Below, piece by piece: positions 28,485 to 30,201 of a stretch of 64,000 nucleotides of DNA. The stretch lies in sequence record MZ726791.1. One strand, written 5' to 3'. This stretch comes from Escherichia phage vB_EcoM_ASO1A. The translations under genes and the position numbers were made by a program. The first letter of the stretch is position 1, and each line of letters opens with the position of its first letter. The notes below the pieces were generated by a model, which made no database searches, had not been told where the DNA came from, and was given only the letters and a program-made list of their open reading frames with translations.

Positions 28485-28563
28485 GGGAGATTGACGGCAA
28501 CTTGGTAGACCTATCTCGCTTAGAACGAGATGCTTGAGGGTTCGAATCCCTTGTCTCCTACCA
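28485..28563 (+). tRNA. tRNA with Leu anticodon TAG but short variable arm
   Basis: Acceptor GGGAGAT/GTCTCCT, anticodon stem TCTCG/CGAGA loop CTTAGAA, T-arm GAGGG-TTCGAAT-CCCTT, A73, CCA. Confidence 0.55.
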
Positions 28564-28570
28564 AATTAAT

Positions 28571-28646
28571 GCAGGTGTAGCAAAATGGTTATGCGGCTGA
28601 CTCTTAATCAGTAAGACGATGGGTTCAATTCCCTCCACCTGTACCA
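28571..28646 (+). tRNA. tRNA-Lys (anticodon CTT)
   Basis: Acceptor GCAGGTG/CACCTGT, anticodon stem GCTGA/TCAGT loop CTCTTAA, T-loop TTCAATT, CCA. Confidence 0.6.
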
Positions 28647-28652
28647 GACATT

Positions 28653-28728
28653 GGGGATGTAGTTTACATGGTTAAAACATAAGTTTTGCAAACTTAAGTA
28701 CAGGGTTCAATTCCATGCTTCTCCACCA
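28653..28728 (+). tRNA. tRNA-Ala (anticodon TGC)
   Basis: Acceptor GGGGATG with G3-U70 wobble (Ala identity element), D-stem GTTT/AAAC, anticodon stem TAAGT/ACTTA loop TTTGCAA, CCA. Confidence 0.75.
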
Positions 28729-28734
28729 ATTAGT

Positions 28735-28809
28735 GCATCCATAGTTTAAACGGGAAAATTACAGTCTTCCAAACTGAGGTTGAGGGTTCGATTCCCTCTG
28801 GATGCTCCA
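28735..28809 (+). tRNA. tRNA-Gly (anticodon TCC)
   Basis: Acceptor GCATCCA/TGGATGC, anticodon loop CTTCCAA, T-arm GAGGG-TTCGATT-CCCTC, CCA. Confidence 0.75.
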
Positions 28810-28816
28810 AATTAAT

Positions 28817-28892
28817 GCTCCTATCGTATAATTGGCTATTACGGTTGCCTTGTAAGCAACTTATCAGGGTTCGAATCCTTGTGGGAGCACCA
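28817..28892 (+). tRNA. tRNA-Thr (anticodon TGT)
   Basis: Acceptor GCTCCTA/TGGGAGC, anticodon stem GTTGC/GCAAC loop CTTGTAA, T-arm CAGGG-TTCGAAT-CCTTG, CCA. Confidence 0.8.
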
Positions 28893-28894
28893 AT

Positions 28895-28985
28895 TCAGAG
28901 GTCAAGTGAAAGACCGCTGGTGTCAACTGAAGACCGTAACAAATTCCACGGAGTTGAGTTAGCGGCACAACTTCAGACCTCTTTC
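28895..28985 (+). ncRNA. extended hairpin element inside tRNA cluster
   Basis: AGAGGTC...CTGAAG...CTTCAGACCTCT: outer 7-bp and inner 6-bp inverted repeats enclosing about 60 nt; contains partial spacer motif GAAGACCGTAACAA. Confidence 0.4.
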
Positions 28986-28987
28986 AT

Positions 28988-29062
28988 GCTCGCTTAGTTT
29001 ATATGGTAAAACATCACCCTTACAAGATGAAGAAAAAGGTTCAAGTCCTTTAGTGAGTACCA
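28988..29062 (+). tRNA. tRNA-Val (anticodon TAC)
   Basis: Acceptor GCTCGCT/AGTGAGT, D-stem GTTT/AAAC, anticodon loop CTTACAA, T-arm AAAGG-TTCAAGT-CCTTT, CCA. Confidence 0.7.
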
Positions 29063-29063
29063 T

Positions 29064-29141
29064 GTTCCAGTATCCCAATTGGCAGAGGATGCAAGCTCAA
29101 ACCTTGTATTAGTGACGGTTCGAATCCGTCTTGGAACACCA
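29064..29141 (+). tRNA. tRNA with Leu anticodon CAA but short variable arm
   Basis: Acceptor GTTCCAG/TTGGAAC, anticodon stem GCAAG/CTTGT loop CTCAAAC, T-arm GACGG-TTCGAAT-CCGTC, A73, CCA. Confidence 0.6.
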
Positions 29142-29146
29142 ATTTT

Positions 29147-29222
29147 GCAGGATTAGTTCAAATGGATAGAGCAACAGTCTACGAAGCTGTTAATAGGGGT
29201 TCGAATCCCTTATCCTGCGCCA
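29147..29222 (+). tRNA. tRNA-Arg (anticodon ACG)
   Basis: Acceptor GCAGGAT/ATCCTGC perfect, D-stem GTTC/GAGC, anticodon stem ACAGT/GCTGT loop CTACGAA, T-loop TTCGAAT, CCA. Confidence 0.85.
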
Positions 29223-29239
29223 GATAAAAAGGTGATACT

Positions 29240-29482
29240 ATGCAAACATTAACAGTAGTTGAACATGAAAACTGTGAGAATATTGAGTTTGTCAGGGTCA
29301 TTGGTGTTGAACACCACATTTTCTTAAAAGTAGGGTACTTATGTGACCCCGCTAGAGTAGAAAGATTTATACGTGATTGTTTTGGTGGTAGACAGCTAAA
29401 GAGTGTTATTTTTGAGACAGTTTTACCAGAAGGTTTAGAAACGAATAATAACATTTATCTCCTTACAAGGATTAGACGATGA
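29240..29482 (+). CDS. hypothetical protein encoded inside tRNA cluster
   Basis: 80-aa ORF with AGGTGA RBS immediately after tRNA-Arg. Confidence 0.45.
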   Translation: MQTLTVVEHENCENIEFVRVIGVEHHIFLKVGYLCDPARVERFIRDCFGGRQLKSVIFETVLPEGLETNNNIYLLTRIRR

Positions 29483-30036
29483 GATATTTAAAATATGCTT
29501 CATGGATTTTCCTAGCTTTGCTAGAACCATTAGCAGCAACCTTAGCAGTTATCTTAGCACCTTTCGTAGTTCCATTTTACAGTGAGAAGAAAGGCCACTT
29601 ACCTTTCGGATTTAGATGGATGGAGACATATGACAACCCAATTGATGGTGACGAAGGTCATATCGAACGATGGGCTAAGATTAGAAAGATTGGTAAGCTG
29701 GGTGTCTACATGCAGAGAGTCGGATGGCTCTGGAGAAACAAAGCTTATAACTTCTCTTACCATGTATTAGGAAGAGATGTAAAAGATGTTACTAAGTGGA
29801 AAGGTAATATCAACGTAAGTTCTGACCCTGAAGATAATCAGACAGGTTATCTCCTAATGTGGAACAGTAATGCTTGGGGATTATTCGCTTTTATCCCATC
29901 AATTAAAGTCTTTGGTAAACAATTTTACTGGAGAATTTATATTGGGTGGAAGCTAAAAAGTGTTGTCCCAGAAGAAAGAGCATTCTCAAGGGAAAGAGTT
30001 ATGTTGGCATTCTTTATTCATCCACTAAGAAAGTAA
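29479..30036 (+). CDS. membrane protein encoded inside tRNA cluster
   Basis: 185-aa ORF; N-terminal hydrophobic helices WIFLALLEPLAATLAVILAPFVVPF. Confidence 0.5.
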   Translation: MRYLKYASWIFLALLEPLAATLAVILAPFVVPFYSEKKGHLPFGFRWMETYDNPIDGDEGHIERWAKIRKIGKLGVYMQRVGWLWRNKAYNFSYHVLGRDVKDVTKWKGNINVSSDPEDNQTGYLLMWNSNAWGLFAFIPSIKVFGKQFYWRIYIGWKLKSVVPEERAFSRERVMLAFFIHPLRK

Positions 30037-30044
30037 AGATTTAA

Positions 30045-30120
30045 AGGGGATTAGTTTACAAGGTTAAAACCTCGGTCTTTGAAATCGAAGAAGTTGGTTC
30101 AATTCCAACATCCCCCGCCA
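30045..30120 (+). tRNA. tRNA-Gln (anticodon TTG)
   Basis: Acceptor AGGGGAT/ATCCCCC with unpaired 1-72 and G73, D-stem GTTT/AAAC, anticodon loop CTTTGAA, T-arm GTTGG-TTCAATT-CCAAC, CCA. Confidence 0.7.
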
Positions 30121-30122
30121 AT

Positions 30123-30201
30123 GCTCCATTACTCCAATTGGCAGAGAGGCCAGACTTAAAATCTGTGTTATGTATCGGTTCGAATCCGATATGGAGTACC
30201 A
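30123..30201 (+). tRNA. tRNA with Leu anticodon TAA but short (7 nt) variable region
   Basis: Acceptor GCTCCAT/ATGGAGT, anticodon loop CTTAAAA, T-arm ATCGG-TTCGAAT-CCGAT, A73, CCA. Confidence 0.6.

Follow-up and report, generated by a model that had tools for sequence, protein, structure and literature searches.

Type I leucine tRNA genes without the long variable arm in Escherichia phage vB_EcoM_ASO1A and other phages

The 64,000-nucleotide (nt) stretch of Escherichia phage vB_EcoM_ASO1A analyzed here (sequence record MZ726791.1; hereafter the window, with positions counted from its first letter) contains three tRNA genes with the leucine anticodons UAG, CAA and UAA that lack a long variable arm. 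Almost all bacterial tRNA-Leu are type II, with such an arm, and type I tRNA-Leu are known from mitochondria and from the tRNA-Leu(CAA) of Streptomyces coelicolor (PMC6614811). The three phage genes are real, conserved and structurally sound type I leucine tRNAs. They are probably functional, decoding leucine codons for an AT-rich phage, and we infer that the host's leucyl-tRNA synthetase (LeuRS) charges them. The observations that carry this reading concern gene structure, conservation, covariation, identity elements, codon match and distribution. In the proposed scheme, the three tRNAs would be transcribed as part of an array of 25 tRNA genes, processed to mature tRNAs carrying the genome-encoded CCA end, and leucylated by the LeuRS of E. 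coli or Salmonella. The host LeuRS would charge them because the enzyme reads A73 and the core formed by the D-loop, the T-loop and the Levitt pair, not the anticodon or the extra arm. On the ribosome, the UAA anticodon would read UUA and UUG, the CAA anticodon UUG, and the UAG anticodon CUA and possibly other CUN codons. The arm-less form would represent a co-adapted architecture, mostly with A9/C13 in place of G9/R13, that circulates widely among phages. The genes, their anticodons and their variable regions are as follows.

28485..28563, + strand: tRNA-Leu(UAG), 79 nt, type I (arm-less); called by ARAGORN, tRNAscan-SE and Rfam
28521-28523, + strand: anticodon of tRNA-Leu(UAG), in the loop CTTAGAA at 28519-28525
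28531..28535, + strand: variable region of tRNA-Leu(UAG), TGCTT, 5 nt, last base U48; decomposition checked on the raw sequence
29064..29141, + strand: tRNA-Leu(CAA), 78 nt, type I; called by ARAGORN, tRNAscan-SE and Rfam
29098-29100, + strand: anticodon of tRNA-Leu(CAA), in the loop CTCAAAC
29108..29113, + strand: variable region of tRNA-Leu(CAA), ATTAGT, 6 nt, last base U48; from arm-by-arm decomposition
30123..30201, + strand: tRNA-Leu(UAA), 79 nt, type I; called by ARAGORN, tRNAscan-SE and Rfam
30157-30159, + strand: anticodon of tRNA-Leu(UAA), in the loop CTTAAAA
30167..30173, + strand: variable region of tRNA-Leu(UAA), GTTATGT, 7 nt, last base U48; from arm-by-arm decomposition

Structure of the three genes

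A sequence-only reading of the window had placed three tRNAs at these positions, and both ARAGORN and the tRNAscan-SE annotation of the depositors bear it out. The latter was taken from the record MZ726792.1 of Escherichia phage vB_EcoM_ASO1B (Ounavirinae, Felixounavirus), which is 100% identical over the 3.3 kb around the Leu genes and in which a window coordinate equals the record coordinate minus 243. It lists tRNA-Leu-TAG, -CAA and -TAA, the same genes and anticodons as ARAGORN; both programs call leucine, and a non-leucine register was not seen with either of them. The Rfam model RF00005 matches the UAG, CAA and UAA genes with 30.5, 44 and 47.5 bits, respectively (gathering threshold, 29), covering model positions 1-71. 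Decomposition into arms gives the following layouts, with the variable region in brackets.

Leu(UAG): GGGAGAT TG ACGGCAACTTGGTAGACCT A TCTCG CTTAGAA CGAGA [TGCTT] GAGGG TTCGAAT CCCTT GTCTCCT A CCA; D-arm ACG-GCAACTTGGTAGA-CCT, with a 13-nt D-loop
Leu(CAA): GTTCCAG TA TCCCAATTGGCAGAGGA T GCAAG CTCAAAC CTTGT [ATTAGT] GACGG TTCGAAT CCGTC TTGGAAC A CCA; D-arm TCC-CAATTGGCAGA-GGA
Leu(UAA): GCTCCAT TA CTCCAATTGGCAGAGAG G CCAGA CTTAAAA TCTGT [GTTATGT] ATCGG TTCGAAT CCGAT ATGGAGT A CCA; D-arm CTC-CAATTGGCAGA-GAG

The anticodon loops, the spacing of 5, 6 and 7 nt between the anticodon and T stems, and the A73 of all three genes are therefore as the sequence-only reading had described them. In each gene, the acceptor stem is paired at 7/7 positions and the T-stem at 5/5, the CCA end is encoded, and U8, A14, G18G19, U33 and the T-loop motif GTTCRA of a canonical cloverleaf are present. 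A class II tRNA has a hairpin arm of more than 10 nt, which the three genes do not have; a leucine anticodon combined with a variable loop of about 5 nt without a hairpin defines type I, and this is what was found. The genes are 78-79 nt long and the gaps to the adjacent tRNAs measure 1-7 nt (Val, 1 nt, Leu(CAA), 5 nt, Arg; Gln, 2 nt, Leu(UAA), 5 nt, Gln; Leu(UAG), 7 nt, Lys); therefore, there is no room for an alternative boundary or a concealed long arm, a possibility that had been raised at the outset. Apart from the question of the arm, tRNA-Leu(CAA) shares its first nine bases, GTTCCAGTA, with tRNA-Glu(UUC) of the same array (29064-29072 and 26330-26338, respectively), and the 3′ strands of the two acceptor stems are nearly identical (TTGGAAC in Leu(CAA), CTGGAAC in Glu(UUC)). 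This likeness may come from duplication or recombination between tRNA genes of the array.

Fold, core bases and conservation

Regarding the fold, 60 distinct 77-nt type I Leu genes were aligned without gaps and examined for covariation. With the arm-less cloverleaf imposed on this alignment, 98.0% of the cells are paired, compared with 57.0% in shuffles (0/500), and changes on both sides of the pair occur at 20/20 pairs. The covariation score is 1.056, against 0.237 in the shuffles and at most 0.206 in slid registers. U8, A14, A15, U48 and A73 are invariant in 60/60 of the aligned genes, and these bases were not imposed by the search. Two designs can be distinguished among arm-less leucine tRNAs.

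Design A: U8-A9, NCC-CAAUUGGCAGA-GGN, variable loop often ending in AGU; the phage CAA and UAA genes
Design B: U8-G9, ACG-GAAUxGGUAUA-CGU, variable loop NUUYU; the phage UAG gene resembles it

The core bases follow this division, as the CAA and UAA genes have A9/C13 and the UAG gene has G9/G13. Design B also occurs in phage TrudiRoth, in a Seunavirus phage and in several metagenomic contigs. Among the listed matches of the viral scans described below, G9 occurs in 154/157 of the long-arm Leu genes, 150/157 of which have a purine at position 13, and the arm-less ones mostly have A9 (104/151) and C13 (119/151); an arm-neutral sample repeats the pattern. Copies of the Leu(UAA) gene with an identity of at least 99% occur in 215 of 263 phage records, and the 3.3 kb around it reaches that level in 1 of 348. 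Judged by this comparison of sequences, Leu(UAA) is under strong purifying selection.

Distribution in phages and bacteria

The arm-less Leu design is not peculiar to Escherichia phage vB_EcoM_ASO1A. All tRNA-Leu in the other Felixounavirus, Mooglevirus and Kolesnikvirus genomes examined have variable regions of 5-7 nt ending in U, A73-CCA and the Leu D-arm; in this comparison with related phages, which the sequence-only reading had suggested, the design occurs across the Ounavirinae. The same tRNA-Leu design (5-7 nt, U at the end, A73-CCA, Leu D-arm) is found in Cronobacter phage EspYZU12 (Seunavirus, Vequintavirinae). The Ser and Tyr tRNAs of these Ounavirinae and Seunavirus phages keep their long arms. 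The arm may be lost from Leu only, because seryl-tRNA synthetase (SerRS) uses it as a major identity element and the bacterial tyrosyl-tRNA synthetase (TyrRS) binds it. The role of the extra arm as a major identity element for SerRS has been described (PMC9976931).

Arm-less tRNA-Leu also appear in the Demerecviridae. Phage T5 has a type II tRNA-Leu(UAG) with a 13-nt arm. In the related Epseptimavirus TrudiRoth, which was obtained on E. coli K-12, tRNA-Leu(UAG) is 77 nt long and arm-less. Both genes occupy the slot directly after tRNA-Ala (7625-7709 of the locus in T5, 37-113 of the locus in TrudiRoth), and the two are unrelated; in this Ala-Leu slot the gene was replaced, not simply shortened. 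Aeromonas phage Akh-2 of the same family carries an arm-less tRNA-Leu(UAA).

Scans of viral sequences extend these cases. A structural pattern with short spacing, used in one of two viral scans that were biased by their design, matched at least 120 contigs in IMG/VR, and ARAGORN was run on the loci. Among the 120 matches listed, 172 tRNA-Leu genes have variable regions of 4-7 nt; in the same loci, all 87 Ser genes have 14-28 nt, and the Tyr genes have at least 10 nt in all but one. Of the 169 unique arm-less viral Leu genes in this listed set, A73 is present in 159, U8 in 162 and U48 in 158, and the acceptor stem is fully paired in 159, none of which was imposed by the search pattern. Those of them that do not match the pattern, 57 genes, have the leucine D-arm all the same. 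In an arm-neutral scan, the UAA anticodon loop and one common T-arm sequence were fixed and the gap between them was left free for either arm type. The matches listed include 108 unique viral tRNA-Leu(UAA), whose variable regions are cleanly bimodal in length: 64 genes have 5-7 nt, 44 have 12-18 nt, and lengths of 8-11 nt do not occur. The arm-less share is thus 59%, which is indicative only, as it refers to the matches listed and to a single T-arm sequence.

A corresponding scan of bacteria (one genome per species) gave at least 120 matches. Among the 120 listed, about 110 are arm-less tRNA-Leu, mostly single chromosomal genes in Actinomycetota, including Nocardia, Mycobacterium, Rhodococcus, Gordonia, Corynebacterium, Arthrobacter and Bifidobacterium, and these actinobacterial genes follow design A almost letter for letter. 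Therefore, the statement in the sequence-only reading that bacterial tRNA-Leu is class II was too strong, given the published S. coelicolor tRNA and the many chromosomal genes of Actinomycetota. A few contigs from metagenome-assembled genomes, with 12-29 tRNAs per 8 kb, look phage-like. Several contigs filed under Acidobacteriota, Rhodocyclaceae and Cylindrospermum hold 19-29 tRNA genes within 8 kb, arm-less tRNA-Leu included; these may be tRNA arrays of phages or prophages that ended up in bacterial genomes through binning.

LeuRS identity elements and the tRNA-Leu of the host

A gene for LeuRS, another synthetase or a tRNA enzyme was not found, by annotation or size, in the approximately 81 kb examined of the 89.5-kb genome, so charging would have to rely on the host. 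The determinants of E. coli LeuRS are A73, U8:A14, A15-U48, G18G19 with U55/C56, A20a and U54:A58, and the enzyme requires neither the anticodon nor the long arm, since arm-deleted variants of E. coli tRNA-Leu are active (PMC9976931; PMC6614811). Leu(CAA) and Leu(UAA) match every one of these elements that can be read from sequence, at canonical positions. Leu(UAG) matches them as well, including U8, the AA doublet, U48 and A73, and the T-loop TTCGAAT of all three genes supplies U55, C56 and the U54:A58 partners. The sequence-only reading had named A73 as the main LeuRS identity element; this holds for E. coli, but the core elements A15-U48, G18G19 and A20a count too, and they are present here. 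The nucleotides of position 47n and of the contacts of the C-terminal domain at 47f-47i are absent from the 5-7-nt loops. Contacts of the variable arm to E. coli LeuRS are reported to be of minor importance or dispensable (PMC9976931; PMC6614811).

The counterparts in E. coli K-12, leuW (UAG), leuZ (UAA) and leuX (CAA), are 85-87 nt long with variable arms of 13-15 nt. They share with the phage genes the anticodons, A73-CCA, U8, U48 directly 5′ of the T-stem, and the T-loop partners. The D-arms of the host genes and of the phage CAA and UAA genes consist of a 3-bp stem and an 11-nt loop with equal spacing, the loop being CAAUUGGCAGA in these two phage genes (written xAAUUGGyAGA) and (A/G)AAU(U/C)GGUAGA in the host. 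A Leu-type D-arm is found in none of the other tRNAs of the phage array, all of which were compared. In contrast to this common core, the host genes have a hairpin arm, G9, a purine at position 13 and, in leuW, G37, whereas the phage genes have no hairpin, mostly A9/C13, and A37 in Leu(UAG). The A37 of Leu(UAG) (CTTAGAA) stands where leuW (TTTAGGT) has its m1G37 site; among the viral matches listed, Leu genes with NAG anticodons have A37 in 44/84 of the arm-less and 20/98 of the long-arm cases. In Leu(CAA), C38 breaks the A36-A37-A38 motif needed by MiaA.

Codon usage

Codon usage was counted on open reading frames (ORFs) of the 64-kb window (38.8% GC) and of a 49-kb E. coli region, and is expressed as fractions of leucine codons. 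In the phage and the host, respectively, UUA accounts for 0.29 and 0.114, UUG for 0.141 and 0.114, CUU for 0.272 and 0.147, CUC for 0.064 and 0.125, CUA for 0.112 and 0.029, and CUG for 0.121 and 0.47. UUA is therefore enriched 2.5-fold and CUA 3.9-fold over the host. The three phage anticodons cover these two most enriched leucine codons plus UUG, and CUG, which is read by the main host tRNA-Leu, is avoided by the phage. As the anticodons UAG, CAA and UAA read CUA, UUG and UUA and the identity elements are those of Leu, the genes do not have the character of suppressor or recoding tRNAs. Taken with the identity elements, the covariation and the purifying selection on Leu(UAA), the leucine codon usage supports the first option offered by the sequence-only reading, namely unusual phage Leu isoacceptors.

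Evidence against charging and decoding, and alternative explanations

Several points weigh against functional leucine tRNAs charged by the host. The main one is biochemical, since E. coli LeuRS was reported to charge "only" type II tRNA-Leu and left the S. coelicolor type I tRNA-Leu(CAA) uncharged (Fan et al. 2019, PMC6614811). The same work notes that the C-terminal domain of E. coli LeuRS contacts 47f-47i and that its leucine-specific domain favors a large variable loop (PMC6614811). Leu(UAG) is the weakest of the three genes. Its D-stem consists of A10-U25, a C11.C24 mismatch and G12-C23. It has an extra base between G13 and the A14-A15 doublet and another between A15 and G18, which makes the geometry uncertain. 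Rfam places its acceptor register one base off with a marginal score, and its orthologue is labelled "tRNA-Pseudo-TAG" in the AYO145A record and "tRNA-OTHER" in some others. Owing to C38 in Leu(CAA) and A37 in Leu(UAG), the host modifications of position 37 (i6A and m1G) may possibly not be made. Over all amino acids, codons with a cognate phage tRNA are only marginally enriched (Mann-Whitney p = 0.056). Regarding the negative charging result, the S. coelicolor tRNA has the variable loop ACAGC and C48 (PMC6614811), and it is therefore without the A15-U48 pair needed by E. coli LeuRS. C48 is a plausible, although unproven, reason for the failure of the E. coli enzyme on the Streptomyces tRNA. 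U48 is present in all three phage genes, as well as in the 158/169 arm-less viral genes among the matches listed. The shortest functional variable loop in the Streptomyces study was 5 nt (PMC6614811), and the phage genes have 5-7 nt.

The main alternative retains leucine acceptance and would see the loss of the arm as an escape from a widespread nuclease, whether of the host, a prophage or a competing phage or induced by the phage, that recognizes or cuts long-arm type II tRNA-Leu, with the phage copies keeping translation going. Phage tRNAs are documented to evade anticodon nucleases by sequence changes; the tRNA-Lys of T5 escapes PARIS, and its tRNA-Tyr rescues infection from retron Ec78. 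Human SLFN11 cleaves type II tRNAs preferentially, and bacteria, too, are now known to use Schlafen nucleases for defense. The arm-less share of 59% in the listed arm-neutral viral sample, the spread across unrelated coliphage families and the exchange of a type II gene for an arm-less one at the Ala-Leu slot that T5 and TrudiRoth share would fit such pressure. A BLAST search with the UAA and CAA genes against 5,426 complete E. coli genomes (28 Gb) also gave no match, although its sensitivity is low for 79-nt queries and a divergent arm-less tRNA-Leu of the host could be missed. However, no bacterial nuclease specific for the long arm of tRNA-Leu was found in the literature examined, the characterized bacterial Schlafens cleave in the anticodon arm or T-loop and are not restricted to type II tRNAs, and the same phages retain the arms of their Ser and Tyr tRNAs. 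Support for cleavage of a host tRNA-Leu in the extra arm during T-even infection was looked for in the accessible literature and not found, and such cleavage is not counted as evidence here. Many Actinomycetota, moreover, have the same design as ordinary chromosomal genes, for which no defense rationale is needed. Escape as the cause of the arm loss is accordingly unlikely. Papers on the evasion of defenses by phage tRNAs (eLife 2023; Nat Commun 2024) do not mention variable arms or Leu architecture. A bacterial Schlafen was considered as a candidate for a long-arm nuclease and set aside, as the Schlafen papers mention type II tRNAs only through human SLFN11.

It is less probable still that the tRNAs are not leucylated and are instead charged by another synthetase, leading to recoding or mistranslation, or serve uncharged as decoys, regulators or primers. 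That E. coli LeuRS did not charge a type I tRNA-Leu from bacteria in vitro speaks for this, but A73, the Leu-type D-arm and A15-U48 (60/60) would then be retained without purpose. For the options of another amino acid or a decoy, which the sequence-only reading had left open, positive support was not found: there is no G3.U70 for Ala and no long arm for Ser, and the anticodon bases that the other synthetases, including those reading anticodons with A35, require by established identity rules (G34 for Phe, C36 for Val, U36 for Ile and CAU for Met; PMC9976931) are missing. Acceptor stems paired throughout, a CCA end encoded in the gene and anticodons that track the leucine codons of the phage fit ordinary decoding. 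That one or more of the genes, Leu(UAG) above all, are pseudogenes decaying in the array is very improbable. The D-stem mismatch, the Rfam score of 30.5 against 29, the "pseudo" and "other" labels and the far greater variation of Leu(UAG) between relatives than of Leu(UAA) (at least 99% identity in 5 phage records, 90-95% in 73 and 80-90% in 89) would suit decay. Nevertheless, every Leu(UAG) allele has the acceptor stem paired at 7/7 and the T-stem at 5/5, and each retains A73-CCA, the CTTAGAA loop and a variable loop of 5 nt with U as its last base. The changes compensate one another, as in A4-U69 to U4-A69 in Pectobacterium phage Wc4 and in four different anticodon stems, and the same odd D-stem persists in Felixounavirus, Mooglevirus and Pectobacterium phage Wc4. 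This pattern of variation indicates constraint, not decay. CUA, moreover, is the leucine codon most enriched over the host, and with strong conservation and all stems intact save the one mismatch in the D-stem of UAG, the genes do not look like pseudogenes. Finally, an annotation artefact, in which another register or other boundaries would give a non-leucine anticodon or a long arm, has next to no probability. Although Rfam moves the acceptor register of UAG by one base, its printed alignment has the same anticodon register for that gene as ARAGORN and tRNAscan-SE, and for CAA and UAA the two programs agree and the Rfam match coordinates, the only feature compared there, are consistent with ARAGORN; the neighbors 1-7 nt away leave the boundaries fixed.

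As an observation on Leu(UAG) itself, three unrelated anticodon stems of this gene (CCATC/GTTGG, GCTTC/GTAGC and CCGTC/GTCGG) all have a U30.U40 mismatch, and the vB_EcoM_ASO1A allele has C30-G40 in its place.

Relation to known leucine tRNAs and implications

The reading as functional type I leucine tRNAs can be compared with several known systems. The closest is the type I tRNA-Leu(CAA) of S. coelicolor, which likewise has a leucine anticodon and a short loop (5 nt) and coexists with type II tRNA-Leu under a single LeuRS (PMC6614811); Streptomyces LeuRS was described as the sole prokaryotic LeuRS that charges both types (PMC6614811). Actinobacterial type I genes share design A (U8-A9, NCC-CAAUUGGCAGA-GGN and the loop end AGU) with the phage CAA and UAA genes to almost the last letter. 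Unlike the phage genes, which have U48 and belong to an enterobacterial phage, the S. coelicolor gene has C48 and lies on an actinobacterial chromosome; its LeuRS makes no use of A73, whereas E. coli LeuRS does, and the loops of the phage CAA and UAA genes are 6 and 7 nt long instead of 5 nt. Engineered tRNAs form a second parallel. Arm-deleted or minimal E. coli tRNA-Leu and the winners of LeuRS selections by systematic evolution of ligands by exponential enrichment (Larkin 2002; Asahara 1998, via PMC9976931) are leucylated without an arm if A73 and the D/T-loop core are intact. These are laboratory constructs on type II scaffolds, of which the phage genes look like natural versions. In animal mitochondrial tRNA-Leu(UUR), the variable loop is likewise short, and A73 and A14 act as determinants (PMC9976931), but this tRNA is charged by a dedicated mitochondrial LeuRS, its core is floppy and non-canonical, and its sequence does not resemble the phage genes. 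Phage T5 resembles the present case in having a Leu isoacceptor in the large tRNA array of a virulent coliphage, with an Ala-Leu(UAG) slot as in TrudiRoth. In contrast, its tRNA-Leu is type II with a 13-nt arm, and the documented cases of an anti-defense role concern its Lys and Tyr tRNAs; neither Leu nor the loss of an arm is involved in them.

The class of type I tRNA-Leu is thus already published, and its presence and abundance in phages, coliphages included, was not found described. No description of arm-less phage tRNA-Leu was found in the full-text literature, with many subscription papers lying beyond the reach of the search, and the study of Fan et al. 2019 (PMC6614811) does not mention phages. 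Textbooks and the LeuRS literature present bacterial tRNA-Leu as class II and type I as a peculiarity of mitochondria and Streptomyces. Virulent coliphages able to grow on E. coli K-12 nevertheless carry type I tRNA-Leu as a matter of routine, although E. coli LeuRS is said to charge type II only, and their genes provide a natural set of substrates for testing the real needs of enterobacterial LeuRS. They also represent a natural experiment on identity rules, as the arm is lost in Leu and kept in Ser and, in all but one gene, in Tyr. For annotation pipelines, they call for caution, since such genes are sometimes flagged "pseudo" or "other". If the escape from a long-arm nuclease were true after all, phage tRNAs would have a structural means of evading host nucleases besides the known one through the anticodon loop; enterobacterial LeuRS would then charge a natural type I tRNA-Leu, in conflict with the report that it handles type II only, and the arm-less copies would sustain leucine decoding while the tRNA-Leu of the host is destroyed.

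The tRNA array and its surroundings

The three Leu genes belong to the following array.

26246..31397, + strand: tRNA array of 25 tRNA genes (ARAGORN), with three small ORFs of unknown function within it

The 3.3 kb around the Leu genes, which are fully identical in vB_EcoM_ASO1B as mentioned above, recur with 90-99% identity in about 290 further phages of the Felix O1 type that infect Escherichia, Salmonella, Shigella and Citrobacter. The array is interrupted by ORFs for DUF7338, DUF7217 and an 80-aa protein, and the ORFs adjoining it or lying inside it encode domains of unknown function, DUF7788/DUF2828 among them. Promoter-like sites at 26099, 26190 and 27587, ahead of tRNA blocks, and a terminator-like hairpin at 31560-31577, after the last tRNA, are matches to consensus sequences that are not enriched over shuffled sequence. 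Elsewhere in the array, the variable arm of tRNA-Tyr has 15 nt and those of the two tRNA-Ser have 20 and 21 nt. One of the latter, tRNA-Ser(GCU) at 31225-31317, has U73, compared with the G73 typical of E. coli tRNA-Ser. This U73 also occurs in the Kolesnikvirus, Mooglevirus and Seunavirus copies, and two tRNAs with CAU anticodons likewise have U73.

Some further tRNA-like sequences lie in the array. At 27008-27136, MZ726792.1 has a 129-nt "tRNA-Thr-GGT" (record positions 27251-27379) that is not called by ARAGORN and to which Rfam gives a partial match of 22 bits at 27079-27129; the sequence is possibly a tRNA that is interrupted or has degenerated. Between tRNA-Ile and tRNA-Ser(UGA), a gap of 569 nt contains a full-length Rfam tRNA match at 27820-27898 (31.7 bits; threshold, 29) and a weak tRNA-Sec-like Rfam match at 28047-28121. 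Both are without an ARAGORN call or an annotation by the depositors and may be tRNA-like remnants. The DUF7338 protein (185 aa, 29479-30036) has relatives with 68-74% nucleotide identity in T4-like phages that infect Klebsiella, Escherichia, Yersinia and Citrobacter, and a holin annotation is attached to one of these relatives. In addition, the 147-kb record GU169904.1, "Staphylococcus phage SA1", contains a Felix O1-type tRNA region with 94% identity, and a few "Campylobacter" records match too; these records are probably mixed or mislabelled.

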